Of a stretch of 64,000 nt of DNA, positions 17,588 to 49,200 are shown piece by piece. The translations under genes were made by a program, and so were the position numbers. The notes below the pieces were generated by a model. That model had not been told where the DNA came from, made no database searches, and worked only from the letters and a program-made list of their open reading frames with translations. Positions within the stretch are counted from its first letter, which is position 1. Each line of letters opens with the position of its first letter. Source of the DNA: Mytilus edulis (taxonomy: Eukaryota); assembly GCF_963676685.1 (NCBI RefSeq), contig NC_092350.1:75950001-76014000 (forward strand), written 5' to 3'.

Positions 17588-17812
17588 TATACGTTATTTT
17601 CGTTGACTAGTTCTAAGCTCACCTTTCTCATGTTTCTCGTATAAGTTATTTTCATTGACTAGTTCTAAGCTTACCTTTCTCATGTTTCGCGTATACGTTT
17701 TTTTCGTTGACTAGTTCTAAGCTCACCTTTCTCATGTTTCTCGTATAAGTTATTTTCATTGACTAGTTCTAAGCTTACCTTTCTCATGTTTCTAGTATAA
17801 GTTATTTTCGTT
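17588..17812. repeat. 52-bp minisatellite (~4 units); mirror at 46750-47125 has ~7 units
   Basis: Unit gttattttcgttgactagttctaagcttacctttctcatgtttctcgtata(a/c), period 52. It marks the outer duplication boundary. Confidence 0.9.
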
Positions 17813-18193
17813 CACCTTTGTGAGTCTCTTTCTATCGAAGTTGACTTCGTTCGTCCGGGAAATCAGTTTTCCACACTTTTTTCTTCATGTTTAAAACATT
17901 GGTTTAATATTTGCTACATTGTTTTATTAGGACAGGTTACAAATCAAGTTCGAATTTTGTTCCGTTCTGATGATTTTGTGCAGCGTTATGGTCCTTGGAC
18001 TTAGAAAATTCCCTTAACTAATCAGTTTTTTACAATTTATTCGTCATGCTTGGAGGAATTTATAATTGGTATACAGAATGTTTGTTGAATATGATATTTC
18101 GTTTTTCGTCGACTTAATCTACGCTTACCTTTATCGTATATTCTATTTTCGTTGACCAAATCTTTGCTAACCTTTATGTTATTTTCATTGTAG

Positions 18194-18358
18194 GCAAACA
18201 GAGCAGCAAACGACGGCGATTATGCCTTCGCAGAAACAAAAGCTAGAAATGCCAGAAATTTTGTCATTGCTGCGTTTGTGACGGGAATAATTGTTTACGT
18301 CATAGTTATTGTGGTACGAGTGGTTTTGTATTCGTCATACTACAGCAGCGGCTACTAA
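18194..18358 (+). pseudogene. Orphan duplicated last exon of the CD225/dispanin gene
   Basis: tttcattgtag|[54 protein letters not shown]. It differs from 46205-46369 at one codon (GCG>TTG, A>L). No upstream exons 1-3 are present on this side. Confidence 0.85.
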
Positions 18359-19129
18359 TGACGTTATATTCGATCTTCAATATCAAAGTTCTAAAGTGCC
18401 ACGTGTTATTTTGTTAATAGACAATTATGTCTTCACAAGAAACATGCCATTACAGTCACCAAGTATATATTTCTTGAACAACTGTAATTATAGTTGCAGA
18501 TACATGTACCAGTACTAAAGCGTTTACTATAATCTGGTTTTTTACAACTTTTTTTAAAAGAGCATCTCGTACTGCAAGAAAAACATTATATAGGCATTAT
18601 AATCAGTTCAAATGTGATCTATAATAATTTATACTGTTGAAATGCATACATAAATACACTTCGCTTAAATTCCACTGAAAGTTAAATATCTAGGTAATTA
18701 TAAAGGTAAAATGTTAGTATTTGTGGTTGTTAATTTTTGCCTCTTGTTTCAAAACTTTATGTTGTCCATCAATATTTAAAGATGTCTCCTTTTTGTCAGG
18801 TTTTGTTTGAATTTCTTCACACCTGTTCTTTTGAAAAAGTTTATACATTTTACAAAACATGTTTATATTATTAAAGGTGATCTGTGATACTAGTAGCTAC
18901 TTGTTTATTATAAATTTTATTCAATATAAAAAGATTTTCAATGTTACCCGAAACAGTTAACTATATATTTACTGCAGATATCAATGGTACCATATATTCT
19001 TATTTTTATAGTGTTTTGTATGTTATTCAGATTGTCGTAGATTTTTTAGTTATTTTTGATAGGTGATTATTTTGAAGACCCAAAAATAATTATCGTTGGT
19101 TTTGCATCTATTCATTTAATATTTTTTAA

Positions 19130-19813
19130 AGGGGCACTAGCTACGAGATATATAAAAAACCAAAAGTATGATTTTTTTGTTCAATCATTAATGAAAGTGA
19201 AAAAGTGAAATAATAATTAGCTTTTATCAGCTAAAATGGTTCAATTTTGTAAAATTAACCTAATAAACATTGATAATGACTTATTCACTTGCAAGTGAAT
19301 AATTCGACCTTATTCAACCCGTATTCATGTGAACTCCAATTTAACCCCGTAGAAAGAGATAGAAAAACGCATGCAATGTCCGTGTACGGTTATTAAAAGG
19401 AAAAAATGTAAACATTGAAAGTGAAACAAAGGTAAATAATTTGATTAATTGATTCGATCCACAAAAAGTCATTCTTATAAAGCTAAAAACGACGGTAAAC
19501 ATAGTTTTTGAATCTATAATACAATATAATAGACTTTTAAAAATTCAATTGCACGTGTGGATTAATCTATTCATATCTATGTTTTTTTATGTTTACATCG
19601 TTTATATGGTCATATAAGGTCAACTCGATAGTTAATTAGATGGCGTCTTGGCTAAAATTCTCACGAAACGAAGCTACATCTTTTTGAGACCATGTCCTGT
19701 ACATTGTTTATTTTATACTTTTGATAGTTTGGAAACATATTTTACATTGTTATAAATAAAACATGTGGACTTGAGACAAATCGGTGATCATGAATTTGGC
19801 AGCTAGTGCCCCT
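19130..19813. mobile_element. Kolobok-like MITE, 684 bp, TTAA TSD (mirror copy 44750-45433)
   Basis: TTAA|AGGGGCACTAGCT ... AGCTAGTGCCCCT|TTAA. Confidence 0.85.
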
Positions 19814-21599
19814 TTAAGAATGTTTTAAACTTTTATTTAACCTTTTAGTCATGGATTCAAGTGAGCTGTGTGATAAGCATTTGTTTATTTTTCATAGAAT
19901 TTATTTGTTTTCGTATCTACAAAGCAATATGACGTTACAATTTCATTGAAGGACAATTAAGGAATGACAACGCTTCGACAAATTCGAGACAACCCATGAG
20001 TGTATGAAAGACAATGATACTAAATTCATTATATAATATAATAGCTTCTAATCGGGTGAACGGAAAGGAATTAGTCCGAAGTTTCGATCGTTGAAATTAA
20101 AGTATGGAAATATATATTTTTCAGTTTATGTATAATTTCAAAATTTGTTTTTGGAAATGTTCTGTCTAGGGTAAAACTTGCAAGCGGGCCTGCTTCGTCT
20201 TAAATGGAAATCTATACATTGTAATTGTTTCACCAAGACTTTATATAGAGTTATGAATATTTTTATAATATAACTTTTAAAACAATGTTGATATCGTTAC
20301 TGTCTCTTTAAATAAAAGTATCTTCTTTATTCTATTATTTTTCAATTAAAATTAATGACTTCTACATTGTAGTGCATGTTGTTATTCACCTCGTCGGAAC
20401 CAAATACATTCTGGGTAAATTTTTTGAAATGCTATATCAAAACATGTTGATTGGTCATAGAAACCAATTAACAATTACAGCATGCCATATGCGCACTTCG
20501 ACTATACTGGACTCTTCGTTGTGCTTAAGTAAAAACTATCAGAAAGCAAAGATCAATAACTGCCACGGATAGACGAGTGCTGGCTTAGAAGGAGTCTGTA
20601 CTTATGAAATAATGACTAATAAAACATGTAAAAGCAACATTAGTATACTGCTGTTCGAAAGTCACAATTCGATTGAGACAAAAACAACTCCGGGTTATGT
20701 TGTCATACAATAATGCTGCCTAATATCATACTGATCACTACAGTACGGCAGATCGGTGAACAAATTGTGGGTTTGATGATAAAAGCACAAAATTTGGAAT
20801 GGTAGTAGTTTTGGGTGTTTAAAAAAATATTAGCTATGGACCCACCTTTCAAAATGACCGCCGTAAAATATCAAAATCAATAGATCTTTACAAGATCAAA
20901 ATCAGTGCCAAATTTGTCATGATAGTAGTGCGAGGTATTTCAAAAACATAATCCATGGACCAACTTTGAAATTTCAGTATAGCTGCTTTTAATCCAAGAT
21001 GGCCGTCTCAAAATATCAAAACCAGCAAATTTCACTTAATAATAATGTACAAGTTCTAATTTTGAATGTTAGACGGACTGGATGCTTCGAACAATATAAC
21101 TTATGTTGAAATATCAAAATCAACAAATATCCATTATATATGGTTACAAAAGTGTTTTGTTTTGACGTACCTTCAGTAGAATCAAGTGACTTTGATACCA
21201 AGTGCATGCTTCATTTTTATACTAAAGCCAAACATCAAATGATTTGTGAAGACAATTCAGAAAAACTACGGTACCATAGTTGCATACGGTACCATACTTA
21301 ATGTAGTCTACAACGAGGGATCACGTTTGGATACTGGCGTTATTCTAACATTTAAGCTAGAATAAACTAGAATGAAACAGTTTTCTTTATGATCAGGTGG
21401 AACAGGACATAGTAATGAGCAGTAATCTGAGGCTTGCCATGCAATTAACAAGGCAGTTGCTTACTTCTTCTGTTCAATGGTTATATTTGTGTTGCAATTA
21501 AACAGGCAACCGCAACAATCTGCTCGTACGACATCGATACGTGAAAAAGCTACACATAAAAGTAGTTCACAAAGACAAGATGTAAGCAAAACTCTTGTC

Positions 21600-22120
21600 C
21601 ACAGTAATCAAAAACATTAGTTGATTATCGTTTGGCCAAATATTCAGATGCAGTCGTATTATTCCATTGAGGCAAATACGACGCTATCCATTTCAAAGTT
21701 ACTTCTGTTTTATTTGTCTTTAATATTACATTCAACTCAACTAGAACCATCTATAAATGTATAATATGGCCCGTCTACCAGATGCTAGGACCAGTAAAGG
21801 ATGTACTAAATGACAAAATGTACAGTTTACATAAGTCGTTTGTGTATGATCCAATTATCCATTTATCAACAGTACTAAAAGATTCAATCTATGAAACATT
21901 CAGTATTGAATATGGGGATGCTTCCGCGAATATTAGTGCTTTTACAACAGTAGCCGTGGACAATATTGACAACAACAGGAGTTCAACTACGGCTAACGAA
22001 TCGTCACATATACTCCAATACATTACAAGCCAACACAACTTTTCGTATTATTGCTATAACTTAGTAACTAATATTATTAGTATAGAACAAGATATATATC
22101 CTAGCACTAACCAAATATAA
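21600..22120 (+). mobile_element. Degenerate relic of a large DNA-transposon-like ORF (mirror ~42400-42930)
   Basis: DKMYSLHKSFVYDPIIHLST...FTT(V/A)AVDNIDNNRSSTTANESSH resembles the recalled 'FTTAAVDNIDHNPSSTTAK.SFHG' motif of repetitive marine-invertebrate transposon-like proteins. The frame is broken upstream and downstream. Confidence 0.5.
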
Positions 22121-22703
22121 CCATGCGTTTCATACTTACATCGAGTAATAACCATATTATGGACATGCACTCTGTCAACTGTCTAACCAGAAATACCAAG
22201 TATAATTAGTATCTGGACATCATTCTACGCATATAATCGTGAAAACGCTGTTATTAAAAGGTACCTCAACTGTTTTATAATAGCGCAAGTTTAAACTTAG
22301 TTGATTTACTTGATTAACTGACGTAACAAATGTGTAGGACAATAGTCCAATGTTAGTAAGAAATGAATATGCTTAGATCCTGTAAATTATTTTCAACAAA
22401 AGATTGTGCATTATGATCAGTCAATAATCAGACGGAAAACAAAATAACGGCGGATCGCAAAAATGAAACCTCGCATTGATGCCGAGGTCGTTGAATCACA
22501 ATGATAACAATTACATGCACCCATTTCTAACTTAACAGTAACTAAATTAGTTCATGATCAAGGACAGTACCTTGAAAGAGCTATAAAGTAGAAATAAGTA
22601 AGAAAAACGTATATACTGTTTTTTTTTATTTTTATTTTTATTTTCTGGAACATTTCTACATAATGTTAACTTCAGAGTTCGACATGTTTTCCTCTTCCTT
22701 GAT

Positions 22704-25700
22704 CTAATTTCCCTTATAATATGTTGAATCGACTTGTTTTCTCCAAGTATTTGTTGGACATTTTGTATATGAACATTCTATGTTGTTCCAAGTAACTCTG
22801 TAATATATTAAACGAAATTGTAAATAAGTATACAAATAAAGTAAATAGAGTTCAAACTTAACGTACGAATATATATATAGCTATCTGCACTATCCTTAAT
22901 TCTGATATGTTCACATTCTGTGCCATACTTGAAGTACCTGATATTACTTTGTTTTCTGTGTTTGTTTAATGACATGTTTGGGGAAAGATACTCTTTATAT
23001 ATAAAGTAATACACAGACGAGTTACTTGAAAGGGTGCCGTTTTGATACGTGTGGGTTGCAATTTTGCCAAGTTAAAATATCAATGGGTAATTAACTATTA
23101 TCTTTCGAATATATATTTTTTGTTTACTTGCTGTTTAATCATAAAAGTTTTAAATACAAATTTAGATGTAAAAAATTGAATATGTAATAACTGAGAAATA
23201 TATGAATGGATCATGATTGTGACAATATATTTTTGAATATGTATTAACTGGTTTAAACTGGACGTTAAGCAAGAAACAATCAATCAATCAGTATTACAAC
23301 ACAATATTTGTTCAAATGAAGCAATATGCAACGTTTAAAATATGTAAGTATGTCTGCACATATATGTATATATTTATACTGATAACCAACAAAATTTCAA
23401 GGGCAAGTTATGATCACGTCTTCAGCGAGTAGAAGCAGTACCACGAGTAAATTAAACTTGGATCTTCCCGAAGTTTGTACTAGATAAAGGCAATTGTAGT
23501 ATACCGCTGTTCAATGGTCATAAATCGATTTAACTGAAACAAATCCGGGTCACAAACCAAAACTGAGGGAAACACGTCAACTATAAGAGGAAACAAAACT
23601 GTACACAAAATTTATATAGAGCTATCTGCATTATGTACACATTCAGTGCCATACTTGAAATATCATAGTTAAATCATTTGCTTCAGACTAAGCGGAAATA
23701 ATCAGTTAATTGGAATAGTTCTTTGCCAATTTTTTATCATTCAATATGAATCTAGTTCAATTATAAAACATACGTAAAGATAAAAGTATACAAACCCGCC
23801 ATCTTCACTGTTAAAACCAACGATAACCTTCCCTTTATTAACTCTATACGACCGCCCGTTTGATGTCGCGTCGTCCACTTGTACATCACAATCTCTGTAT
23901 GTGTACTCTATGTCTGCAAAAAAATATTACTTATAACAGCTCAAATATTTATTTGTTCATGTAAACATAACAAGAGCTGAAGATATTTTTTTAGCATATT
24001 TGAACTGTTAATTTAATACAAGAGCTGTTTGTGTATTTTTGAAAATATTACAATCATTACGTTCTCTGTGATGAAACTATTATGAATAACACTAATGTTC
24101 AAATTAGTGCAACTTCTCAGCACTGAAAATGTAAAAGATTTGCGTAATTTGTGTAAATTCTTGTTTAATGCACTTAATCATAGGACCAAACTGTTATTGG
24201 TCAATACTTGATATTTATTTGCTTCTCTGATGTATTATGTCATGTTGTGTTATAGAAATGTATTTGTATTTATTGCACTAATAAGCATAATGTGCTTAAA
24301 GTAATAAAGAATTGAATTGAACACTATACATGATGATACCAAAACATTTTCAGAGGGCCAAAATGGAACTAATTTAGCCACAGAAAAGCTTATCTCAGTT
24401 TTTCTTAAGACAGCAAATAAATCATCCCGAATGGTGAGAAAAAAGAAATACAAAAAGAAAACTGGTTAGATAAAAGAAGTCCGACAAAACGTAAACTGTT
24501 AGAAAAGCTGTTAAAAATGGAGTCTTATTAAGAATTAATTTATGATAAACTCTCAGACTCATCATTAAATAGTCCTTCTGCATTTTACTAAACTCCGTAT
24601 AAGTGATCATGGTCTTGAATTAAAAACTGGTCGGTGCACTAAAATTCTTTGAGAATAAAGACTATGTAAAAATCGAAGATGAATTTCAATTATTCTTAAA
24701 TGCAAAGTAAATACAAATATCAGACAAAACCTATATAATGATATACAATTAGAAGTTGAACATTTCATTCATGAAGACAAATTATTTTATATATTAAACC
24801 CAGATAGATTTATTGGCTTTATAAAAAAGGTCATTATAACTGGGGGGGGGGGGGGGGGGGGGGGGCAGTTGTCTGAAGTAACATGGCTATCTTAAAGAAA
24901 TGACCGTCACGAAATATTCAAATGTGTAGAAAGTATCATTAAGCACAAATCAACCAATCAGTCAAGAAGACATTTGATTATGTTAATTATTCCTGTGCTT
25001 CGTAAAATAATAATAATCCTATGATTTAAGAATTAAATGCTTTTTGTTATCCTATTCTGGTGTAATAGCATTGCTCATAGCCCATTTTATAAATTGGCGG
25101 TACATATCCAACTCTTTTAGAACTTGATAGAATTACAATTCATTCCATTACACCAATATCACATACATGTCATACGTTATACTGTCTACAACAATGACAT
25201 GTTTTTAGTATTACTTACTTTTGTCCTCACAACATCGAACGTTTTGACCAAATCCTTCTAAATATTCCCATCCACTTATATAGCCATATCCAGGACATTT
25301 GAAAGAGTTTTTCAAATTATAAACTACCGGAAAAAAAAGAAGATAGATTGATTAAATCGATACAGAATTGTTTTTTGCATATAAACATTGGCAGGACATA
25401 TGCTTTTTCAAATAGGATTTGTGTTCAGTCCGTAAAACTCATTTTTTTTCAATTATGCGGTTGTTCTTATATGTTTCTTACTGATTATCACAGTGAACTG
25501 ACACGTTTAAATCCGGATTAGTGTATCGGTCTAATACAAAGCATATTCATTTTGCATTAAAATGCTCTCCTTCTGCCTAATTATGCATTTTATAAACTCT
25601 TCATAAATACTAAGATTAAAAGTGTGTATACCGTTTATCAGCTTGGTATATACTATGTAAATGATAAATTAGCTAGTTTGATTTTCACTTCTACGAAACT

Positions 25701-26092
25701 TCAACTGTTGAAAGTTTTTTTTTTTACCTTAATAGTGAAGATATCGTTTAACATGTTTAAGTACCTTACCTTAATAGTGAGAATATCGTTTAAGTACCTT
25801 ACCTTAATAGTGAAGATATCGTTTGAGTACCTTACCTTAATAGTGAGGATATCGTTTAAGTACTTTACATATACTTACATAGAGTTTGGCACACTACGTT
25901 TTTTCCTGGTCCCGGTTTACACGTAAATGGAAACGGATCAGGGAATAGCTTATCAATGGAATCTCCGTCACGACAATACTGCCTATATGTTATTGGTCTC
26001 GATTTCTTTTTATCATTTTGGTAGCTACCAAGGACAGTGGAAGCAATAACGAGTAATATCAAACCTGTAAGTTGTAAACAAAAATATAACAT
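22704..26092 (-). CDS. Secreted Cys-rich, divergent dermatopontin/HAAF-like protein, copy A; exons 26092-25879, 25323-25219, 23913-23796, 22797-22704; 176 aa
   Basis: GT-AG exons of 214+105+118+94 nt with compatible phases 1/1/2, a signal peptide and an upstream TATAAAA. The protein is identical to copy B (one synonymous GGG/GGA difference seen). Confidence 0.75.
24095..24319 (+). mobile_element. LINE 3'-end fragment present only in the left arm
   Basis: MFKLVQLLSTENVKDLRNLCKFLFNAL, then AATAAA and a GAATT tail. Bounded by AACACTA at 24088-24094 and 24320-24326; the right arm has a single AACACTA. Confidence 0.55.
24560..24830 (+). mobile_element. Degenerate LINE ORF2 C-terminal zinc-knuckle relic (mirror ~39920-40190)
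   Basis: FTKLRISDHGLELKTGRCTK..*E*RLCK..IEDEFQLFL matches the RISxHxLxIExGR...RxC...IEDExHF motif, with stops and a frameshift. Confidence 0.65.
25725..25865. repeat. 33-bp tandem repeat (~4 units) in intron 1 of the secreted-protein gene (mirror 38880-39022)
   Basis: Unit taccttaatagtgaagatatcgtttaagtacct. Confidence 0.85.
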
Positions 26093-28200
26093 TTTTTCAC
26101 CAATATTAATACAAAGCATGGACACAATATTTTTATATTTTTACAGTTTTTACGTTACAGCTAAAGTTAATTGATCGATATTATATCATTTTAATGTTTG
26201 CATTTCTACTATCTAATGAACCTTGATCAAAATAATATCATGTAAATTTCTGCATTTCTGCTAACTAATCAACACTATAGATGTCAATTTTTTCTGATAT
26301 GTGGTATTCTAAAGACTCGAAAATGTCAGCCACATATCAAGTATACATATCAAAATGGTAACTTTTTATACTGACAAACTATTTTTGTTGGATGCTACAC
26401 TGCTTTCTGTAGGCAATCTGCATTCCTATGGTTAAACCAAAAGGTAAAATCACAAAAATACTGAACTCCGAGGAAAATTCAAAACGGAAAGTCCCTAATC
26501 ACCCAAATGCATGATTCGAAAACAAACTGATAAAGACATGCCATGGCAAAAAAAAATATACTGAAAAGCGTAGAAAACTAAAGTCGAGCAACCGGATCCA
26601 AACTAATAACCGGAACGATCACAAGTGCTCCGGAAGGCTAAACAGTTCCTGCTCCATATAGAACGACCCACGTGTTACTTCTATGAAACGCGGTAAATTA
26701 TACCAAGAGATAAGGTATCACACAATAGCGAATTACAGTTCAGTATTGGCTATATAATATTAAATGAAAAACAAAGGAGCATACATAAATTTCTGCAAAT
26801 TATGATTACATTGAGCGTTGCCATTAATTAATCTGTTAATGAAATAAATATAAGAACTTTCTATTTTGATAAATTCAGTTGATGTTCAATGCACATAGAA
26901 GAAGTCTATCAAAACATTGTTTTAATATTTATTGAGTTTTCATGAAAACAAATGTTCCATGGAGTATAAAATTTCTCTCATACAAAATTTTTAACAGAAA
27001 CATAAACCTTATCAGTGGAGTTGACTCGTCTTCGAAATAACACGAACGAGACTTACCTTCGCCATAAAACAAAACAAGATGTGAACGTACAGTGGTATGA
27101 GGATATGTGGTCCTAAGCGATGTCATCGCTGTAAACTTTAAATAAAGTACAAAAAAGCAACTTTCATTTTTGTCTAATACGCAAAGTGATTTAGATTTAT
27201 GATTTGTTTTTCTTAATATTATTACCTTTGTAGCTTAAACAAGCCATTGCAAACTGTAAGTAAGTAAGGTAAGTTTCCGTCCTTGAGTAACAAAGTTGTA
27301 GGTTAAGTTATAATGTACTATGGAAATCACCTTGCTTTATATACTTATTCAATTTAAGAAGTTAAAGCCCGTTAATAATGAAACCAAAATTAACAAGAAG
27401 CTATGTTAAATTAACTGAAACCCACCAGAAAGCAATTGAATGCGTCGGTGAACTAACAATATGCATTTGACAAACTGAAAATCGTTGATCTTGAAATTGG
27501 AATTGAATTCACGCCGAAAGATAGAAAACACATAAGTTAACACACAATATCAAACTATTGTCGACGAACCAGTACACAATAATTAGAAAGACAACACGAG
27601 CCATTAACAGGAAAAACTACTACAAACAAGAATAAAAAGTGTGTTAGTGAGGGTGTATAGAAAACTACTTTCCGTGAGAATGTTTTAAAATGTTTAAAAA
27701 AGAGCAAGGGGTAATAAAAACATAAGCTCAAGAAAATCAAAACGCACTACATTAAACAAAAGTAGACGTATAACATTTAACAAATTAGCCGGATCTGAGA
27801 CTGGAACGGGTTGTGCAGGAGAGGAAAGCAGTTTTTTTTTTATCTTTTGGTCGTTTGTAAAGGATAACTGAAAAAGTCGCATTAATGATTTCATATTTTT
27901 TAATTACTTAACAATTTGCAAGAATGATTGATAACGAAATATTGATATCCATTCAAGTACGTATGAAATCATTTTATAAACAATTCATTTAAAAAATACC
28001 TAGTGCTTTTCTATTACCATCTTTTAACTACCATTAACCTCTCTAAAACTTAATTTGATATTTTTAAAGTTAGTTTTTAAATGTTTTAAGAAACTAAGAT
28101 ACTATCTCCGTTTGACGAAGTTGACCTTACCATACGTCATTTTGCATATGGCCGTTCGGTCAGGGTTTTCCCTGGGTATTGAAGTATTCATAGATGTTGA

Positions 28201-28570
28201 GGATGTACTTAGTTGAGGTTTAGACATGTATTTCAGATGGTCAGACTCCTGGGTCAAAGCATGTTAAACCGTTATGCTTAATAACACTAATTTTTCTTAT
28301 CATATATGAAATTTATAGCTCAAAAAGGGTCATTTACCAAATTTTAAGCAGATTCTTGATTTCATTTCTTTCAATTTGAGACCCTTATAAAACCAATGCA
28401 AATATAAGGTTAAAGTCAAAGACAGTCTGCTTCCGCCAATTGTTTAAAATTAAATATCTCGAAAAGGAGCTGCAAAAACTATCAATATTTTGAGCTTATG
28501 CTTATGATTTTCCGACTTATTGTATCTATCTTAAAATCTGTTTTTTTCTTAATTTCCCTTAAGTACATCC
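28201..28570. mobile_element. Kolobok-like MITE (mirror 36160-36531)
   Basis: TTGA|GGATGTACTTA ... TAAGTACATCC|TTAA. Confidence 0.6.
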
Positions 28571-31121
28571 TTAAGCTTTAAAATGTTTGTAATTCCCTTA
28601 CATCTTCTGAAATTTCGTTTGAATGGAGTGGCTCAATTTTATCTTTTTTATTTGTGCTTCTTTTAATTGTTTCACTTTATGTTGAATTTTTTGTTATGGC
28701 ATTGTCTATTTAATATGAATTAAGGTTTCGGGTACCTTTGTTTTCTCATATTACTCTTTGTGTATGTACAGCGTCAATGCATCGTTTAAATTATAATAAT
28801 ATCGATTCACTGACTTGTTACGAGTTAGAACACTTCTCATAACATGTCCAATTGACTCGGAATCTTATTGCATAGGGTTGTCAGTGTTCGCGCTTAAGGC
28901 TGGTTTTTCCGAAAGTAGTATGACATGTATGACTTCCTTCATATAAAAAAAGAACCGTAAGGATAAAGCCAAGAGTATTGAAAATTGTCTGAACTACCTA
29001 CAATCAATCAATCAAATCACATGAACTGTTTACGCAAAGGTATTTTGATTTTAAAAATTTAAACCGGAAAAAAGGACTTCAAAGTGCATGTATTGTTCAA
29101 GTTGCATATACCAATGATAACAAATATATATATATATATTAATGTTACTCCTGCAAACATTATTTTTCTTTTCTCGTTCAAACTTTTTGAAAATTGTTAA
29201 TAATGATATGAATATAGAATATAGAATAAGGAGATGTGGAATGATTGCAAATGGGACAATGCCGACTTTAATCATTTGATTTATTTGCATACGATATATA
29301 GCTTATCATGTGTTTAAACTATTAGTCTTTCTGATAAATTATAAGATATGACTAAACTATTAGTCTTTCTGATAAATTATAAGATACGACTAAACATATC
29401 TGGTCTTTGTTTATTTTAATTTTAGTTTCTTGTACAATTTGGAAATTAGTATGGCGTTCATTATCACTGATGATAACTGGTTCTTTATTTCCGTGATTGG
29501 ACTATCATTTACCTGTAAGAAACCATTATTTTACCTTTAGCTGTCCAATATGTTTTAAGAATTGCCCTCTTCTTTCTTAAAAATATTTGACAGCTGTAAG
29601 GTAGCATGACTGATTCCTACAGGTAAATGATAGTTCAATCACTGAAATAAAAAAAAAACACTATTAATTACCCTAATTGTTTTCATCAAGTAAAGAAAAA
29701 TACAACTAAAGAACAAATGACAATTAAAAACAACATTGTATTAAAGTCAACTCCCAATACAATAATTTTGTCACTCATCAAAACGGTCTCTTGAGGGAAA
29801 AAAACTTTCAATTGATTTTTAACACTACCAATACTTATATCACAGAAATTTTTCTTATGTTTTGGGTTGTCTCTTTTCGCACTAATTCAATAAGTTGATT
29901 ATGGTCGTTGTAAGTCTTGTTTTTTTCCCTTTGTGAATTTCTTTTTTTTTTTAAGATTTAACCTCGTCCGTCTTTCTCTTTCTTCGTTCTTGCACTAACA
30001 ATATACTTTAATCACTTTATACATTTTGAAACACAAAACACATGTAAAGATTTTCACGGATACTATGAGCGGAAAATATGATAAGTCCTTGTGCACGTGC
30101 AAATCATGATACGCATACCCTGTGTAGTATTCTTCATGTAGCAGTACCTGTTTTTTAGTTGAGCTACTGTTTAAAGGGGCCAATTGCAACATGTAGGATA
30201 AATTTTAATGTAAAGAAGTTTATTTACAAAACAATTTTCCTACTTGATGAAATTATATCTTTGCTTGCTGTTTCTTTTGTTTTACTTTTTTCGACGTGTT
30301 AAACAATGTTTTAAGTAAGATATAAGCCTCTAACAGTCGATTCTGTAAAATATTAAACAAATATTTTACAGAATGGACTGTTGTCGGCTTATATACCTGA
30401 CATAATAGTCAAACATAATATTAATCTGGTTGTTTTTTAAATTACAGTCACCTTATCTCATTTAATTACATAAACTTTCCTTCACCCCCTGATGTTGAAC
30501 ATGTATGTTCTGTTCTATAAGTAGGTACGTAGGTGCCCATATTCACAAATTTGCACCATCCTGGGATCAATTATCAAACAAATTATTTCTGTATTATGGT
30601 TTTGAGTGTTTTGTAAATATCTTACAGAAACCAACTCTTTGAATTAGAATATTTTAGTAGCACTTGATAAAACTAATAATTTTATCTAAATCAAGGACAC
30701 ACTATTACATTTCTCCAATAGCCAGTGATGTTTATTGTTCGTTCTAAAAATCAATTACTATATGAAACAAAATATAAAGTATTTCTAACGACATTTGATA
30801 TGAACAGGGGTAATGGGATTTTGATTTATTTAACATTTTGTATATTATTTTTGGAAGCACCTGCTGCTGCTTTTTGTTATGTATCATTAATTAATACAAG
30901 CGATTAATTTCTATTTTTGCAATTTAAGATTACAAAACCTTGTCCTACATTCTCGTTTTAGCTTACATAGTTGTAAATTAACATGCTTGAAATTGTTTTT
31001 CTTTAAGTAATAGCCTTATGACGATGATTTTTTTCATATGTTTTTTAGTAAACTACATGTAATGATGGTAAGAAACAGAAAAATGAAAACATCTAATAAA
31101 TAAAATGATCGAAATATTATT

Positions 31122-31362
31122 AATAAAATTGAGAATGGAAATGGAGAATGTGCCAAAGAGACAACAACCCGACCATAGAAAAAAACAACAGCAGAAGGTC
31201 ACCAACAGGTCTTCAATGTAGCGAGAAATTCCCGCACCCGGAGGCGTTCTTCAACTGGCCCCTAAACAAATATATACTAGTTCAGTGATAATGAACGCCA
31301 TACTAATTTCCAAATTGTACACAAGAAACTAAAATCAAAATAATACAAGACTAACAAAGACC
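31122..31362 (+). mobile_element. Dispersed non-autonomous (Helitron-like) repeat; other copies at ~52350-52633 and 56519-56790
   Basis: Shared sequence ataaaattgagaatggaaatgg..aaagagacaacaacccgacc..cccgcacccggaggcgt..agtgataatgaacgccatactaatttcc. The class assignment is inference. Confidence 0.75.
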
Positions 31363-31617
31363 AGATATGTTTAGTCGTATCTTATAATTTATCCGAAAGA
31401 CTAATAGTTAAGTCATATCTTATATTTAATCAGAAAGACTAATAGTTTAAACACATGATAAGCTATATATCGTATGCAAATAAATCAAATGATTAAAGTC
31501 GGCATTGTCCCATTTGCAATCATCCACATCTCCTTAATCTATATTCATATCATTATTAACAATTTTCAAAAAGTTTGAACGAGAAAAGAAAAATAATGTT
31601 TGCAGGAGTAACATTAT

Positions 31618-38100: not shown

Positions 38101-38653
38101 CCTTCCGGAGCACTTGTGATCGTTCCGGTTATTAGTTTGGATCCGGTTGCTCGACTTTAGTTTGCTACGCTTTTCCGTATTTTTTTTTTTGCCATGGCAT
38201 GTCTTTATCAGTTTGTTTTCGAATCATGCATTTGGGTGATTAGGGACTTTCCGTTTTGAATTTTCCTCGGAGTTCAGTATTTTTGTGATTTTACTTTTTG
38301 GTTTAACCATAGGAATGCAGATTGCCTACAGAAAGCAATGTAGCATCCAACAAAAATAGTTTGTCAGTATAAAAAGTTACCATTTTGATATGTATACTTG
38401 ATATGTGGCTGACATTTTCGAGTCTTTAGAATACCACATATCAGAAAAAATTGACATCTATAGTGTTGATTAGTTAGCAGAAATGCAGAAATTTACATGA
38501 TATTATTTTGATCAAGGTTCATTAGATAGTAGAAATGCAAACATTAAAATGATATAATATCGATCAATTAACTTTAGCTGTAACGTAAAAACTGTAAAAA
38601 TATAAAAATATAAAAATATTGTGTCCATGCTTTGTATTAATATTGGTGAAAAA

Positions 38654-41600
38654 ATGTTATATTTTTGTTTACAACTTACAGGTTTGATATTACTCGTTAT
38701 TGCTTCCACTGTCCTTGGTAGCTACCAAAATGATAAAAAGAAATCGAGACCAATAACATATAGGCAGTATTGTCGTGACGGAGATTCCATTGATAAGCTA
38801 TTCCCTGATCCGTTTCCATTTACGTGTAAACCGGGACCAGGAAAAAACGTAGTGTGCCAAACTCTATGTAAGTATATGTAAAGTACTTAAACGATATCCT
38901 CACTATTAAGGTAAGGTACTCAAACGATATCTTCACTATTAAGGTAAGGTACTTAAACGATATTCTCACTATTAAGGTAAGGTACTTAAACATGTTAAAC
39001 GATATCTTCACTATTAAGGTAAAAAAAAACAACTTTCAACAGTTGAAGTTTCGTAGAAGTGAAAATCAAACTAGCTAATTTATCATTTACATAGTATATA
39101 CCAAGCTGATAAACGGTATACACACTTTTAATCTTAGTATTTATGATGAGTTTATAAAATGCATAATTACATTTTAATGCAAAATGAATATGCTTTGTAT
39201 TAGACCGATACACTAATCCGGATTTAAACGTGTCAGTTCACTGTGATAATCAGTAAGAAACATATAAGAACAACCGCATAATTGAAAAAAAATGAGTTTT
39301 ACGGACTGAACACAAATCCTATTTGAAAAAGCATATGTCCTGTCAATGTTTATATGCAAAAAACAATTCTGTATCGATTTAATCAATCTATCTTCTTTTT
39401 TTCCCGGTAGTTTATAATTTGAAAAACTCTTTCAAATGTCCTGGATATGGCTATATAAGTGGATGGGAATATTTAGAAGGATTTGGTCAAAACGTTCGAT
39501 GTTGTGAGGACAAAAGTAAGTAATACTAAAAACATGTCATTGTTGTAGACAGTATAACGTATGACATGTATGTGATATTGGTGTAATGGAATGAATTGTA
39601 ATTCTATCAAGTTCTAAAAGCGTTGGATATGTACCGCCAATTTATAAAATGGGCTATGAGCAATGCTTTTACACCAGAATAAGATAACAAAAAGCATTTA
39701 ATTCTTAAATCATAGGATTATTATTATTTTACGAAACACAGGAATAATTAACATAATCAAATGTCTTCTTGACTGATTGGTTGATTTGCGCTTAATGCTA
39801 CTTTCTACACATTTGAATATTTCGTGACGGTCATTTCTGTAAGATAGCCATGTTACTTCAGACAACTGCCCACATGTATCCCCCCTCCCCCCCCCCCCCC
39901 CCCCCCCCAGTTATAATGACCTTTTTTATAAAGCCAATAAATCTATCGGGGTTTAATATATAAAATAATTTGTCTTCATGAATGAAATGTTCAACTTCTA
40001 ATTGTATATCATTATATAGGTTTTGTCTGATATTTGTATTTACTTTGCATTTAAGAATAATTGAAATTCATCTTCGATTTTACATAGTCTTTATTCTCAA
40101 AGAATTTTAGTGCACCGACCAGTTTTTAATTCAAGACCATGATCACTTATACGGAGTTTAGTAAAATGCAGAAGGACTATTTAATGATGAGTCTGAGAGT
40201 TTATCATAAATTAATTCTTAATAAGACTCCATTTTTAACAGCTTTTCTAACAGTTTACGTTTTGTCGGACTTCTTTTATCTAACCAGTTTTCTTTTTTTA
40301 TTTCTTTTTTCTCACCATTCGGGATGATTTATTTGCTGTCTTAAGAAAAACTGAGATAAGCTTTTCTGTGGCTAAATTAGTTCCATTTTGGCCCTCTGAA
40401 AATGTTTTGGTATCATCATGTATAGTGTTATTCATAATAGTTTCATCACAGAGAACGTAATGATTGTAATATTTTCAAAAATACACAAACAGCTCTTGTA
40501 TTAAATTAACAGTTCAAATATGCTAAAAAAAATATCTTCAGCTCTTGTTATGTTTACATGAACAAATAAATATTTGAGCTGTTATAAGTAATATTTTTTG
40601 CAGACATAGAGTACACATACAGAGATTGTGATGTACAAGTGGACGACGCGACATCAAACGGGCGGTCGTATAGAGTTAATAAAGGAAAGGTTATCGTTGG
40701 TTTTAACAGTGAAGATGGCGGGTTTGTATACTTTTATCTTTACACATGTTTTATAATTGAACTAGATTCATATTGAATGATAAAAAATTGGCAAAGAACT
40801 ATTCCAATTAACTGATTATTTCCGCTTAGTCTGAAGCAAATGATTTTACTATGATATTTCAAGTATGGCACTGAATGTGTACATAATGCAGATAGCTCTA
40901 TATAAATTTTGTGTACAGTTTTGTTTCCTCTTATAGTTGACGTGTTTCCCTCAGTTTTGGTTTGTGACCCGGATTTGTTTCAGTTAAATCGATTTATGAC
41001 CATTGAACAGCGGTATACTACAATTGCCTTTATCTAGTACAAACTTCGGGAAGATCCAAGTTTAATTTACTCGTGGTACTGCTTCTACTCGCTGAAGACG
41101 TGATCATAACTTGCCCTTGAAATTTTGTTGGTTAGCAGTATAAATATATACATATATGTGCAGACATACTTACATATTTTAAACGTTGCATGTTGCTTCA
41201 TTTGAACAAATATTGTGTTGTAATACTGATTGATTGATTGTTTCTTGCTTAACGTCCAGTTTAAACCAGTTAATACATATTCAAAAATATATTGTCACAA
41301 TCATGATCCATTCATATATTTCTCAGTTATTACATATTCAATTTTTTACATCTAAATTTGTATTTAAAACTTTTATGATAAAACAGCAAGTAAACAAAAA
41401 ATATATATTCGAAAGATAATAGTTAATTACCCATTGATATTTTAACTTGGCAAAATTGCAACCCACACGTATCAAAACGGCACCCTTTCAAGTAACTCGT
41501 CTGTGTATTACTTTATATATAAAGAGTATCTTTCCCCATACATGTCATTAAACAAACACAGAAAACAAAGTAATATCAGGTACTTCAAGTATGGCACAGA

Positions 41601-41816
41601 ATGTGAACATATCAGAATTAAGGATAGTGCAGATAGATATATATATATTCGTACGTTAAGTTTGAATTCTATTTACTTTATTTGTATACTTATTTACAAT
41701 AATTTCGTTTAATATATTACAGAGTTACTTGGAACAACATAGAATGTTCATATACAAAATGTCCAACAAATACTTGGAGAAAACAAGTCGATTCAACATA
41801 TTATAAGGGAAATTAG
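38654..41816 (+). CDS. Secreted Cys-rich, divergent dermatopontin/HAAF-like protein, copy B; exons 38654-38867, 39411-39515, 40604-40721, 41723-41816; 176 aa
   Basis: MLYFCLQLTGLILLVIASTVLG-SYQNDKKKSRPITYRQYCRDGDSIDKLFPDPFPFTCKPGPGKNVVCQTL|FYNLKNSFKCPGYGYISGWEYLEGFGQNVRCCEDK|NIEYTYRDCDVQVDDATSNGRSYRVNKGKVIVGFNSEDG|GVTWNNIECSYTKCPTNTWRKQVDSTYYKGN*. TATAAAA at ~38601-38616 and an AATAAA cluster at ~41878-41895. Confidence 0.75.
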
Positions 41817-44800
41817 ATCAAGGAAGAGGAAAACATGTCGAACTCTGAAGTTAACATTATGTAGAAATGTTCCAGAAAATAAAAATAAAAATAAAAAAAA
41901 ACAGTATATACGTTTTTCTTACTTATTTCTACTTTATAGCTCTTTCAAGGTACTGTCCTTGATCATGAACTAATTTAGTTACTGTTAAGTTAGAAATGGG
42001 TGCATGTAATTGTTATCATTGTGATTCAACGACCTCGGCATCAATGCGAGGTTTCATTTTTGCGATCCGCCGTTATTTTGTTTTCCGTCTGATTATTGAC
42101 TGATCATAATGCACAATCTTTTGTTGAAAATAATGGTTAGTTTACAGGATCTAAGCATATTCATTTCTTACTAACATTGGACTATTGTCCTACACATTTG
42201 TTACGTCAGTTAATCAAGTAAATCAACTAAGTTTAAACTTGCGCTATTATAAAACAGTTGAGGTACCTTTTAATAACAGCGTTTTCACGATTATATGCGT
42301 AGAATGATGTCCAGATACTAATTATACTTGGTATTTCTGGTTAGACAGTTGACAGAGTGCATGTCCATAATATGGTTATTACTCGATGTAAGTATGAAAC
42401 GCATGGTTATATTTGGTTAGTGCTAGGATATATATCTTATTCTATACTAATAATATTAGTTACTAAGTTATAGCAATAATACGAACAGTTGTGTTGGCTT
42501 GTAATGTATTGGAGTATATGTGACGATTCGTTAGCCGTAGTTGAACTCCTGTTGTTGTCAATATTGTCCACGGCTGCTGTTGTAAAAGCACTAGGATTCG
42601 CGGAAGGATCCCCATATTCAATACTGAATGTTTCATAGATTGAATCTTTTAGTACTGTTGATAAATGGATAATTGGATCATACACAAACGACTTATGTAA
42701 ACTGTACATTTTGTCATTTAGTACACCCTTTACTGGTCCTAGCATCTGGTAGACGGGCCATATTATACATTTATAGATGGTTCTAGTTGAGTTGAATGTA
42801 ATATTAAAGACAAATAAAACAGAAGTAACTTTGAAATGGATAGCGTCGTATTTGCCTCAATGGAATAATACGACTGCATCTGAATATTTGGTTAAACGAT
42901 AATCAACTAATGTTTTTGATTACTGTGGACAAGAGTTTTGCTTACATCTTGTCTTTGTGAACTACTTTTATGTGTAGCTTTTTCACGTATCGTTGTCGTA
43001 CGAGCAGATTGTTGCGGTTGCCTGTTTAATTGCAACACAAATATAACCATTGAACAGAAGAAGTAAGCAACTGCCTTGTTAATTGCATGGCAAGCCTCAG
43101 ATTACTGCTCATTACTATGTCCTGTTCCACCTGATCATAAAGAAAACTATTTCATTCTAGTTTAGTCTAGCTTAAATGTTAGAATAACGCCAGTATCCAA
43201 ACGTGATCCCTCGTTGTAGACTACATTAAGTATGGTACCGTATGCAACTATGGTACCGTAGTTTTTCTGAATTGTCTTCACAAATTATTTGATGTTTGGC
43301 TTTAGTATAAAAATGAAGCATGCACTTGGTATCAAAGTCACTTGATTCTACTGAAGGTACGTCAAAACAAAACACTTTTGTAACCATATATAATGGATAT
43401 TTGTTGATTTTGATATTTCAACATAAGTTATATTGTTCGAAGCATCCAGTCCGTCTAACATTCAAAATTAGAACTTGTACATTATTATTAAGTGAAATTT
43501 GTTGGTTTTGATATTTTGAGACGGCCATCTTGGATTAAAGCAGCTATACTGAAATGTCAAAGTTGGTCCATGGATTATGTTTTTGAAATACCTCGCACTA
43601 CTATCATGACAAATTTGGCACTGATTTTGATCTTGTAAAGATCTATTGATTTTGATATTTTACGGCGGTCATTTTGAAAAAAGCCGCCATATTGAAATTT
43701 CAAGGTGGGTCCATAGCTAATATTTTTTTAAACACCCAAAACTACTACCATTCCAAATTTTGTGCTTTTATCATCAAACCCACAATTTGTTCACCGATCT
43801 GCCGTACTGTAGTGATCAGTATGATATTAGGCAGCATTATTGTATGACAACATAACCCGGAGTTGTTTTTGTCTCAATCGAATTGTGACTTTCGAACAGC
43901 AGTATACTAATGTTGCTTTTACATGTTTTATTAGTCATTATTTCATAAGTACAGACTCCTTCTAAGCCAGCACTCGTCTATCCGTGGCAGTTATTGATCT
44001 TTGCTTTCTGATAGTTTTTACTTAAGCACAACGAAGAGTCCAGTATAGTCGAAGTGCGCATATGGCATGCTGTAATTGTTAATTGGTTTCTATGACCAAT
44101 CAACATGTTTTGATATAGCATTTCAAAAAATTTACCCAGAATGTATTTGGTTCCGACGAGGTGAATAACAACATGCACTACAATGTAGAAGTCATTAATT
44201 TTAATTGAAAAATAATAGAATAAAGAAGATGGCTGGTTTTAATACTTTTATTTAAAGAGACAGTAACGATATCAACATTGTTTTAAAAGTTATATTATAA
44301 AAATATTCATAACTCTATATAAAGTCTTGGTGAAACAATTACAATGTATAGATTTCCATTTGAGACGAAGCAGGCCCGCTTGCAAGTTTTACCCTAGACA
44401 GAACATTTCCAAAAACAAATTTTGAAATTATACATAAACTGAAAAATATATATTTCCATACTTTAATTTCAACGATCGAAACTTCGGACTAATTCCTTTC
44501 CGTTCACCCGATTAGAAGCTATTATATTATATAATGAATTTAGTATCATTGTCTTTCATACACTCATGGGTTGTCTCGAATTTGTCGAAGCGTTGTCATT
44601 CCTTAATTGTCCTTCAATGAAATTGTAACGTCATATTGCTTTGTAGATACGAAAACAAATAAATTCTATGAAAAATAAACAAATGCTTATCACACAGCTC
44701 ACTTGAATCCATGACTAAAAGGTTAAATAAAAGTTTAAAACATTTTTAAAGGGGCACTAGCTGCCAAATTCATGATCACCGATTTGTCTCAATTCCACAT

Positions 44801-46204
44801 GTTTTATTTATAACAATGTAAAATATGTTTCCAAACTATCAAAAGTATAAAATAAACAATGTACAGGACATGGTCTCAAAAAGATGTAGCTTCTTTTCGT
44901 GAGAATTTTAGCCAAGACGCCATCTAATTAACTATCGAGTTGACCTTATATGACCATATAAACGATGTAAACATAAAAAAACATAGATATGAATAGATTA
45001 ATCCACACGTGCAATTGGATTTTTAAAAGTCTATTATATTGTATTATAGATTCAAAAACTATGTTTACCGTCGTTTTTAGCTTTATAAGAATGACTTTTT
45101 GTGGATCGAATCAATTAATCAAATTATTTACCTTTGTTTCACTTTCAATGTTTACATTTTTTCCTTTTATTAACCGTACACGGACATTGCATGCGTTTTT
45201 CTATCTCTTTCTACGGGGTTAAATTGGAGTTCACATGAATACGGGTTGAATAAGGTCGAATTATTCACTTGCAAGTGAATAAGTCATTATCAATGTTTAT
45301 TAGGTTAATTTTACAAAATTGAAACATTTTAGCTAATAAAAGCTAATTATTATTTCACTTTTTCACTTTCATTAATGATTGAACAAAAAAATCATACTTT
45401 TGATTTTTTATATATCTCGTAGCTAGTGCCCCTTTAAAAAATATTAAATGAATAGATGCAAAACCAACGATAATTATTTTTGGGTCTTCAAAATAATCAC
45501 CTATCAAAAATAACTAAAAAATCTACGACAATCTGAATAACATACAAAACACTATAAAAATAACAAAATGTGGTACCATTGATATCTGCAGTAAATATAT
45601 AGTCAACTGTTTCGGGTAACATTAAAAATCTATTTATATTGAATGTAATTTATAATAAACAAGTAGCTACTAGTATCACAGATCACCTTTAATAATATAA
45701 ACATGTTTTGTAAAATGTATACACTTTTTCAAAAGAACAGGTGTGAAGAAATTCACACCAAGGAGACATCTTTAAATATTGATGGACAACATAAAGTTTT
45801 GAAACAAGAGGCAAAAATTAACAACCACAAATACTAACATTTTACCTTTACAATAACCTAGATATTTAACTTTCAGAGGAATTTAAGCGAAGTGTATTTA
45901 TGTATGCATTTCAACAGTATAAATTAATATAGATCACATTTGAACTGATTATAATGCCTATATAATGTTTATCTTGCAGTACGAGATGCTCTTTTAAGAA
46001 AAGTTGTAGAAAATAGTCTTGGAGACCAGATTATAGTAAACGCTTTAGTACTGGTACATGTATCTGCAACTATAATTACAGTTATTCAAGAAATATATAC
46101 TTGATGACTGTAATGGCATGTTTCTTGTGAAGACATAATTGTCTATTAACAAAATAACACGTGGCACTTTAGAACTTTGATATTGAAGGTCGAATATAAC
46201 GCCA

Positions 46205-49200
46205 TTAGTAGCCGCTGCTGTAGTATGACGAATACGCAACCACTCGTACCACAATAACTATGACGTAAACAATTATTCCCGTCACAAACGCAGCAATGAC
46301 AAAATTTCTGGCATTTCTAGCTTTTGTTTCTGCGAAGGCATAATCGCCGTCGTTTGCTGCTCTGTTTGCCTACAATGAAAATAACATAAAGGTTAGCAAA
46401 GATTTGGTCAACGAAAATATAATATACGATAAAGGTAAGCGTAGATTAAGTCGACGAAAAACGAAATATCATATTCAACAAGCATTCTGTATACCAATTA
46501 TAAATACCTCCAAGCATGACGAATAAATTGTAAAAAACTGATTAGTTAAGGGAATTTTCTAAGTCCAAGGACCATAACGCTGCACAAAATCATCAGAACG
46601 GAACAAAATTCGAACTTGATTTGTAACTTGTCCTAATAAAACATGTAGCAAATATTAAACCAATGTTTTTAAACATGAAGAAAAAAGTGTGGAAAACTGA
46701 TTTCCCGGACGAACGAAGTCAACTTCGATAGAAAGAGACTCACAAAGGTGAACGAAAATAACTTATACTAGAAACATGAGAAAGGTAAGCTTACAATTAG
46801 TCAACGAAAATAACGTATACAAGAAACATGAGAAAGGTAAACTTAGAACTAGTCAACGAAAATAACTTATACGAGAAACACGAGAAAGGTGAGCTTAGAA
46901 CTAGTCAACGAAAATAACGTATACGAGAAACATGAGAAAGGTAAGCTTACAATTAGTCAACGAAAATAACGTATACGAGAAACATGAGAAAGGTAAGCTT
47001 AGAACTAGTCAACGAAAATAACTTATATATACGAGAAACATGAGAAAGGTAATCTTAGAACTAGTAAAAAAAATAACTTATACGAGAAACATGAGACAGG
47101 TAAGCTTAGAACTAGTCAACGGAAATAACATACACGGTAGAGGAAAGCATAGATTTAGTCAAGGAAAATTAACATGACTCTTTTTGTTTGCACGGAGCTA
47201 TTCGTGTATGGTTTAGAAATTGTTGTCACATGTTTTGATTTCTTTGGTTTTTACTACCATACAGGGTAAACTATTTTGTCCAATATCACCTACTTATTTT
47301 TTCATATAAGACGTCTATAGTCATTTACCAAAATTAAGGCAGATTCTAAATTTTTCTTATTCCGATATGTGATTTAAGGCCCATGCTATATATAAGGTAA
47401 AAGTAATATGGATCATATCCGTGATCATCAGTTTCACAGATATCGAATAAAGTCTTTGTCATTGCTTTTTCTATACTTATTTATTATAATCATCCGTCAT
47501 AATACATAGAATCGTACCAAATATGCACATTTATTTAAAAAAAATTAAGTTAAAAGTAATATGACAAAAAAACGAACCCCATGGAAAATTCTAAATGAAA
47601 AGTCCTTTATCGAATGAAAAATTCAAATGTTCAAACACATCAAAAGAGTGGAAACAACTGTACTATATCTGACTTGATACAGGCTTTCCGTATGTAGATT
47701 GTGGTTATTTTTATTTATAGATATAAAAAGATGTTGTATGAGTGCTTATTGAATACTTACATCGTTTGCCGCTATAAGTGCACATATTCCAATAGGCCAA
47801 AAGCATAAACATGCAAAAATGGCGGGAATCAACCAATTAGTTGGTCTTACGCCATGAACGACCATTTGCTGTGGCTGGTTTGTAACCTGAAGAATAAACG
47901 TTAAAACTATATTCCAATATCATTAAATTTCATCAGTATTACATAACTTTAATATTCAACTGCAAAATAAAAGGTAAAGTTGTACGATAAGCTAATGACA
48001 ATTAATCGTTTTGGGAGGCATGGTCCCCGTCCCAAAAACAATTAATCGTTTTGGGAGGCATGGTCCCCGTCCCAAAAACAATTAATCGTTTTGGGAGGCA
48101 TGGTCCCCGTCCCAAAAACAAAATTTGTGTATCAGTGTTTTATTCTGTTATCTCTGTATGACAGCTGTTTTGACTGTTGGCCTTAGGTGTCATCTGTTTT
48201 CTCTGTACGCAAAGTTTTTTTTTCTGATATCGCCATTTGACATGTGTTTTGATTGCTGCATCTGTTTGGTAGAGTTTTTACCAGTTACATTGTATCTTTA
48301 CAATGTGATGTTTTCTGCAAGTTTTTATCTATTGCCCGAGTGTTGTAGAGGTTTAGTATGTTGTCTCTTCATTGTTGTACCTGTTGCCTTTGAAAACACA
48401 GAGTCACTGGTCTCAATCGAGTCAATAAATCAATATTATTCAGATATTGTAATGTTATTATATTCATTGTACGGGTTTTGTGATATTGTATATAATATAC
48501 TATCTGGATAACACTGATTTGCCTGTACCTACTTTCTTGGAAATGCACTTGCTATCCGAATAACTCTGTTGTGTATGTAGATATAGGAAGATGTGGTATA
48601 AGTGTTAATGAGACAACTCTCCATCCAAATAACAATTTATTAAAGTAAACCATTATAGGTCAATGTACGGCCTTCAACACGGAACCGAACAACAAGCTAT
48701 AAAGGGCCCAAAAATAACTAGTGTAAAACCATTCAAACGGGAAAACCAACGGCCTAATAAATGCTTACTTTGGTGATTGACGGGATTAGTTCCCTTAGTA
48801 AATGCAGTAGATCCACATTTGTACTTAGTTAGTCGTAAGCGGTTGAGATAGGGAAGTACTTCTTAATATCAGTCGGGTTGGACATTGCTTTGTACCATTG
48901 AGTTCTCGGGTTGGAGTTCCGAAGGAGACACAGTGATTGTGTAATGAAAATCATGCTCAACGGTGAGATTTAGCGTCCATCAATACAAAAAACCTGGTGA
49001 GAATAATTACCTAGTAACTTTGGGAACTGTTGTCGTATATCATCATTATCTTAAAATTACTCTAGAGATAGGGAAATGTGATTGCATTGCTTCCCTTAGC
49101 GATATGTAGTATATATAGTTACTTAGCTAGCCTAAGCAGTTGGGCCAAAGAAGTACTTATTTAGTTCAGTCGTTAGAGCACTGCATTGTTACACAGATAT

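Follow-up and report, generated by a model that had tools for sequence, protein, structure and literature searches.

How did a 12-kb stretch of a mussel genome come to lie beside a flipped copy of itself, which copy is the derived one, and is the arrangement present in the animal or only in its assembly? The question is raised by a 64,000-nucleotide window (the whole stretch of DNA analysed here) of Mytilus edulis, positions 75,950,001 to 76,014,000 of contig NC_092350.1 in assembly GCF_963676685.1, where a first-pass annotation made from the letters alone had described an inverted segmental duplication and left it undecided between a real duplication and two alleles assembled head-to-head. 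The sequence at the junctions and the absence of N bases (0 in the 64,000-base window) tilt that choice toward a real duplication without proving it, and we consider it probable that the arrangement exists in the animal rather than being an assembly artefact. With moderate confidence we attribute it to a local event in which repair of a break or a stalled fork proceeded with template switching.

Self-BLAST of the window, which is AT-rich (~32% GC), pairs 17588-29470 with 46975-31282 in four collinear minus-strand blocks. Two of these are long, 17588-24094 with 46975-40423 (97.6% over 6,568 columns) and 24313-29026 with 40434-35695 (97.9% over 4,756 columns), and two are short, 29025-29139 with 35251-35137 and 29124-29470 with 31633-31282. 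The resulting parts of the locus are as follows.

17588-29470, plus strand: left arm, the derived inverted copy of the right arm, both of its ends being non-ancestral junctions
29471-31281, unstranded: spacer of 1,811 bp, in single copy between the arms
31282-47136, minus strand: right arm, in the ancestral position, including its own insertions and the full minisatellite at 46751-47136

The arms therefore centre on ~30376, and a single palindrome centred at 33144 is excluded, just as the first-pass annotation had maintained; the self-palindrome at 31673-34614 (99.9%) is a separate feature, independent of the arm pairing. The same annotation had called the spacer unique. Indeed, it is present once between the arms and no match to either arm was found, but it is partly repetitive, since 31123-31281 belongs to a dispersed repeat.

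Which arm is the copy? The answer comes from three features at the arm ends.

31123-31365, plus strand: dispersed repeat, unbroken across the boundary between spacer and right arm
46205-51309, minus strand: CD225/dispanin gene, with a Pro/Gly/Gln-rich exon at ~51306-51041, an exon at 47886-47763 and the last exon at 46369-46205
17588-17812, plus strand: left minisatellite of 52-bp units, 4.3 copies, arranged as a 104-bp dimer

In an ungapped alignment of 243 bp the dispersed repeat matches 56520-56762 at 95.5% identity; it also matches 52378-52613 at 80.7%, and the left arm retains just its last ~84 bp. The CD225 gene, for its part, passes through the outer boundary of the right arm, with exons extending to ~51306, and the left arm starts in the preceding intron. 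Because the dispersed repeat spans the inner right-arm junction and the CD225 gene the outer one, both of these junctions are ancestral, and the left arm, both of whose junctions are novel, is therefore the derived copy; the order spacer - right arm - right flank is the ancestral one. That the right arm continues into the CD225 gene and that the left arm is derived had both been proposed in the first-pass annotation, and both are upheld. The minisatellite is full on the right, with 7.4 units as compared to 4.3 on the left; the left one is not a simple truncation of the right array, since the unit variants differ. In a staggered-break inversion with inverted duplicates, each duplicate carries one novel junction; this model is rejected, because the left arm has both. 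A giant element with long terminal inverted repeats, which would have symmetric termini, a target-site duplication and arms independent of host genes, is likewise rejected, as the right arm runs on into a CD225 intron and the two outer ends lack symmetry.

How, then, was the left arm joined to its surroundings? Global alignment revealed no extended homology at either novel junction, and the left-flank end and the spacer start share no target-site duplication (TSD) or overlap, just one 10-bp match far from the ends. Short local features are present at both junctions.

17575-17588, plus strand: outer junction, 14 bp identical to 20207-20220 (right-arm counterpart 44343-44356)
29461-29478, plus strand: inner junction, a snap-back with a 6-bp stem and a 4-nt loop, its second arm starting at 29471
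29481-29654, unstranded: imperfect 174-bp hairpin at the left edge of the spacer, decayed and resembling a miniature inverted-repeat transposable element (MITE)

The outer 14-bp copy abuts the first minisatellite unit and is a candidate templated insertion; as background, a match of at least 14 bp ends within 2 bp at 173 of 35,788 flank and spacer positions. The inner breakpoint falls between 29470 and 29478. Here the snap-back, a 5-6-nt insert of a kind found at 0.5% of positions exactly and at 1.7% within 2 bp, is followed by a 3-bp (5/6) inverted microhomology to 31276-31281; both features are short and could be partly due to chance. Within 10 bp of this junction lies the hairpin, one of the ten elements of this kind catalogued across the window, with a predicted fold of -45.7 kcal/mol (z -10.9, equalled by 0 of 200 shuffles). 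We scored junction pairs by six tests, three per junction: a templated match, a snap-back and closeness to a hairpin. Three were positive for the real pair, which was negative for the inner templated match, the outer snap-back and the outer hairpin proximity; among 20,000 random pairs, one reached three, 51 reached two or more, and 13 were templated at both junctions. A 12-kb stretch with a flipped neighbouring copy is an ordinary, already known kind of rearrangement; what is new here is short templated sequence without long homology at both junctions, the inner one beside a 174-bp hairpin. In a literature search on inverted duplications and palindromes in Mytilus, neither this locus nor Mytilus nuclear duplications were among the matches listed.

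These junctions suggest a fold-back origin. A 3' end would have arisen where the spacer begins on the left, at the foot of the hairpin, and folded back ~1.8 kb to the inverted microhomology at the boundary between the spacer and the segment to be duplicated (D), leaving the small snap-back insertion. Some 12 kb of D would then have been copied until synthesis came to a halt within the 52-bp minisatellite; a brief priming 2.6 kb back would have given the 14-bp insert before the end was joined to the left flank, producing the order flank - D' - spacer - D - flank. Later, or through haplotype origin or recombination, the arms would have come to stand ~1% apart with separate retroelement insertions, one like a long interspersed nuclear element (LINE) on the left and, on the right, a Penelope-like element (PLE) and one like a short interspersed nuclear element (SINE). 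The outcome would be two intact head-to-head coding copies of a secreted-protein gene and an orphan last exon of the CD225 gene. Known fold-back duplications (Hermetz et al. 2014, PMC3907307; in yeast, PMC10622511) likewise show inverted arms and a kilobase-scale single-copy spacer; they also have short inverted microhomology and a small local insertion where the inverted arm meets the spacer, to which the short features at the inner junction here may correspond. For example, spacers of 766-70,466 bp, a range that includes the 1,811 bp found here, and junctions with 2-8 bp of microhomology or short local insertions are reported in PMC3907307; short templated fold-back insertions and inversions at breaks are documented in yeast (PMC11724301), where fold-back priming and the stabilisation of fold-backs by secondary joins at repeats are also supported (PMC10622511). 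Unlike these, the duplication in the window is interstitial, 12 kb long and without visible telomere healing or terminal deletion, and its arms are 1% diverged with private insertions, whereas the arms of the known fold-backs are identical.

The same precedents could be read as a classic breakage-fusion-bridge cycle, in which a fold-back forms a dicentric, a second break falls in the minisatellite and the end heals onto an unrelated or distant region, the present left flank then not being the ancestral neighbour. Spacer size and inner-junction features match PMC3907307, and secondary joins at repeats stabilise fold-backs in yeast (PMC10622511). Against this, such a cycle would entail a large deletion or translocation that the germ line has to tolerate, no more than 12 kb is duplicated, and the 14-bp insert, which comes from inside the arm, suggests continuous template switching. 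Because of that small size and that insert, one replicative event with three template switches is favoured, and we hold the full cycle to be very unlikely.

The hairpin next to the inner junction brings in another mechanism, alternative (sister-chromatid or hybrid-end) transposition, by which the left end of the hairpin would have been inserted, on the sister or homologue, at the point where the spacer meets D. The inner breakpoint lies 3-10 bp from that left end, as close as only ~1% of random positions, identical 3 bases flank the hairpin on both sides, and alternative transposition is reported to yield inverted duplications in maize. The terminal repeats, however, are decayed far beyond the 1% arm divergence (34-bp core 94%, whole arm ~85%, mismatched tips), and the outer junction shows neither an element end nor a TSD; in place of intact transposon termini with a TSD at both novel junctions, we found one decayed end, at the inner junction. 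We therefore give this mechanism little credence; in the fold-back that we favour, the hairpin may have had some part.

Could the left arm instead be a misplaced allele? Global alignment, with the minisatellite outside the count, gave 114 substitutions in 11,386 aligned columns (1.0%; 49 transitions and 65 transversions), a divergence that the first-pass annotation had left to be computed, together with 28 small indels in both directions, a few of which are segment-boundary artefacts. The single-nucleotide polymorphisms, two-way indels, difference in minisatellite copy number and three large arm-specific segments that it had listed were all recovered. A fairly recent origin, as it had put it, cannot be deduced from 1% divergence, a value at or below ordinary Mytilus allelic divergence (heterozygosity of 1.73 +/- 0.24% in M. 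galloprovincialis, PMC7653742). The substitutions are clustered (variance 14.9 against a mean of 4.7 per 500 bp, p 1e-6), with 28/1,172 at the outer end, 24/3,699 and 33/4,183 in the middle and 28/2,315 at the inner end, a pattern that would fit a haplotype mosaic or arm-to-arm conversion. The two long segments hold 22 internal indels, and 11 of these span 3-24 bp; for this reason the arms represent two different DNA lineages and not a single molecule read twice, and a fold-back chimeric read is excluded by these indels and by the kilobase-scale insertions. Since 1% lies within allelic divergence, the arms may have begun as, or recombined with, different haplotypes.

An assembly artefact, in which a second-haplotype contig of 12 kb ended up reversed between the left flank and the spacer and the gaps were closed or removed, must be taken seriously, although we consider it unlikely. 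The heterozygosity-level divergence, the arm-private insertions and the different minisatellite alleles and unit sets have exactly the look of two Mytilus haplotypes; the near-invariant coding sequence (1 difference in 573 nt) fits alleles as well as constrained paralogues; and the left arm ends inside repeats, ~228 bp into the minisatellite and ~84 bp into the dispersed repeat, as many contigs do. All of these points weigh against the fold-back. So do the letters of the junctions, which are not those of an exact one-step fold-back and include an extra short repeat at each, the junction probabilities, which are optimistic because thresholds were chosen after inspecting the junctions, and the fact that classic fold-back products finish in a terminal deletion or translocation; the outer junction here runs into gene-bearing DNA. 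Divergence itself cannot decide the matter, because a real duplicate can gain allelic differences from its homologue.

What counts against the artefact is its construction. It would need two independent non-homologous joins; an overlap-based join would presumably require shared sequence at the left-arm junctions, which are non-homologous, and templated sequence stands at both. The spacer opens with a complete hairpin element rather than stopping short of it. The 2.9-kb near-perfect palindrome is correctly embedded, and its collinear flanks suggest that the region had long-range read support. The lack of N bases also speaks against it, without being decisive, as gaps can be filled or removed. 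Published false duplications are described as lying in tandem with a gap or on separate contigs, and in the heterotype cases a gap separates the joined copies (bioRxiv 2020.05.22.110833). The present case resembles these in its adjacent copies with heterozygosity-level divergence and allele-like indels, and differs from them in being inverted, gap-free and furnished with templated sequence at both joins. A real duplication by fold-back thus remains our preferred account.

The palindrome at 33144 is a PLE, carried by the right arm.

31621-34751, unstranded: PLE, consisting of (TA)28, copies at 31673-33143 and 33145-34614, a one-sided tail of ~90 bp, and (TA)24
34492-34530, plus strand: minimal hammerhead ribozyme motif, a U3-A8 core variant, with a mirror copy that starts at 31795 on the minus strand

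The two copies are head-to-head and 5'-truncated around a 1-nt centre at 33144, and a lone 1-bp indel in 1,470 bp is all that distinguishes the halves. Since both are truncated at the same base, the insert is one hairpin with 1.47-kb arms, and given its near-identity the hairpin postdates the divergence of the two arm lineages. Pfam places a GIY-YIG domain at residues 262-343 of a 364-aa frame (E 8.3e-7), at the C-terminus; the truncation has removed the reverse transcriptase (RT) core, for which Pfam gave no hit, and we take what remains at the N-terminus of the frame to be the RT thumb. The translation also includes a C-x4-C-xx-C linker, a core CxxC and, further on, two His residues. Tandem repeats of ~56 bp occupy 34313-34456, in the 3' part of the PLE and shortly before the hammerhead motif. 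On these sequence features the element is assigned to the known Neptune/Nematis type, endonuclease-positive (EN+) and inserted in (TA)n. It shares with described members the C-terminal GIY-YIG, the CX4CxxC linker, the (TA)n target, the inverted 5'-truncated copy, the one-sided tail and the minimal U3-A8 hammerhead; a CX2-5CxxC linker, CCHH motif, (TA)n bias, inverted truncated copy and tail are described in PMC8557442, and the hammerhead variant in PMC4209133. It departs from them in the shared truncation point of its two copies and in its tail of ~90 bp, as compared to 30-40 bp. The (TA)n site is empty in the left arm, bearing out the first-pass claim that the insertion is confined to the right. 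A read artefact is excluded for the hairpin by its one-sided tail and by flanks that run collinear with the empty site. As the cause of the duplication it is unlikely, being absent from the left arm and differing by a single indel in 1,470 bp where the arms differ by 1%, though a later loss from the left arm by deletion between (TA)n tracts is conceivable. Head-to-head palindromic PLE junctions have been attributed to self-priming (PMC3846280), and the nested element is a clean case of that proposal, with the empty site beside it. An inverted segmental duplication with a spacer and a head-to-head PLE insertion are both known kinds, and no new type of system is present.

Three large segments are arm-specific: 232 bp on the left, and 443 bp and ~3.5 kb on the right. 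The last, at the (TA)n site that is empty in the left arm, comprises the PLE hairpin and a separate 385-bp element.

24088-24326, plus strand: left-only segment of 232 bp with 7-bp direct-repeat flanks, the end of a short open reading frame (ORF), AATAAA and a short-repeat tail
35252-35694, unstranded: right-only segment of 443 bp with 2-bp microhomology at its ends
34752-35136, minus strand: right-only, tRNA-like 385-bp element between (TA)n tracts, with an A/B-box region, SINE-like (fold z -3.6)

From family likeness, we take the 232-bp segment to be likely a 5'-truncated LINE insertion. The 443-bp segment was probably deleted from the left arm. ARAGORN called no tRNA genes, and neither it nor Rfam called the SINE-like element; the eight Rfam hits are all below gathering score and hairpin-driven. 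The SINE-like element shares the (TA)n target of the PLE and, speculatively, may have been mobilised by it.

What genes does the duplication carry? The complete coding sequence of a secreted Cys-rich protein lies in each arm, together with the last CD225 exon.

22704-27126, minus strand: secreted Cys-rich protein gene, left copy, exons 27126-27057, 26064-25879, 25323-25219, 23913-23796 and 22797-22704
37612-41816, plus strand: secreted Cys-rich protein gene, right copy, GT-AG sites of all four internal introns kept
18194-18358, plus strand: orphan CD225 last exon, AG acceptor and stop intact, no upstream exons (Pfam CD225, E 2.3e-6)

The two secreted-protein gene copies point away from the centre. 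Each arm has a 573-nt open frame in five exons whose translation is identical to P0006 (M. galloprovincialis LOC143051057), and the copies differ by one synonymous change, at 23831/40686. The substitution rate in coding sequence (1/573) did not differ clearly from that in introns (31/3,603; Fisher p 0.12), and p was 0.047 against the rest of the arm. The sequence shows a hydrophobic leader and conserved cysteines. One arm exon is 100% identical to the M. edulis predicted protein P0002, and P0007 is an M. trossulus relative; matches of this kind assign the window to the Mytilus edulis complex. Relatives are few (11 matches in a protein search, several weak), no Pfam family was found in P0002, P0006, P0007, P0009 or P0010, and an AlphaFold model from a 5-sequence alignment was unusable, with a mean predicted local distance difference test (pLDDT) score of 38.7. 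At the N-terminus (27126-27057, minus strand), the 24 residues before the leader differ from the M. trossulus start, a downstream ATG near the first-exon donor is out of frame, and no exon matching the M. trossulus N-terminus was found in the window; the true first coding exon is thus uncertain. Directly before the first coding exon as annotated, the left arm has an AG (27130) where the right arm has GG (~37608), so that the right copy, in the ancestral position, may have lost an acceptor if an upstream non-coding exon exists.

The CD225 exons were matched through the Mytilus proteins P0003 and P0004 (M. trossulus, M. galloprovincialis); the first coding exon was not located. In the last exon the arms differ at 1 of 54 residues, Leu on the left and Ala on the right, where P0003 and P0004 have Val; either arm is further from P0003 (3/54) and P0004 (4/54) than from the other arm. 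A translated intron-exon piece, P0008, agrees with the left arm at two sites and with the right arm at one. Judged by these outside sequences, both arms carry derived states. A perfect 40-bp tandem repeat (47998-48121, 3.1 copies, 100% identity) lies in a CD225 intron.

Several features were observed around the duplication. About 0.8 kb left of the outer junction, an intronless F-box/LRR gene (15753-16761, minus strand; Pfam F-box-like and LRR) has in-frame stops near its start and a frameshift between two overlapping ORFs, and looks like a pseudogene. The last exons of a PXMP4-like gene (Tim17/Pmp24 family) lie at 10257-12068 (plus strand); because this gene appears to end by 12068, the orphan CD225 exon is probably not spliced to it. 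An open frame at 1-405 (minus strand, 135 aa, no Pfam hit) resembles a LINE ORF2 C-terminus. Dispersed or hairpin-forming, MITE-like repeats include 1025-1406, matching 19126-19502 and 45061-45437, and further ones at 14963-15125, 17417-17504, 63872-64000, 6118-6680, 8226-8302, 30320-30394, 49975-50101 and 50542-50656. An old direct duplication at 59110-59792 (~340 bp, 74% identity) overlaps a 137-aa ORF that gave no Pfam hit.

What would the locus mean for Mytilus? If it were an artefact, it would be a gap-free inverted false duplication of a kind that would inflate gene counts. If it is real, a secreted, Cys-rich bivalve protein that belongs to no Pfam family has had its whole coding sequence doubled, and the locus illustrates, at the level of the junctions, how structural variants arise in Mytilus, a genus whose diversity owes much to large indel polymorphism as one of its main sources (PMC7653742). 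A bolder version, which we regard as doubtful, is that of a still-segregating fold-back, triggered at the decayed MITE hairpin, whose new arm was copied from the homologue, thereby locking two alleles of the secreted protein head-to-head as fixed heterozygosity and later stably carrying a 2.9-kb PLE palindrome between their promoter regions. Were such a homologue-copied fold-back true, it would provide a base-resolved origin for hemizygous, copy-variable segments in the mussel pan-genome.

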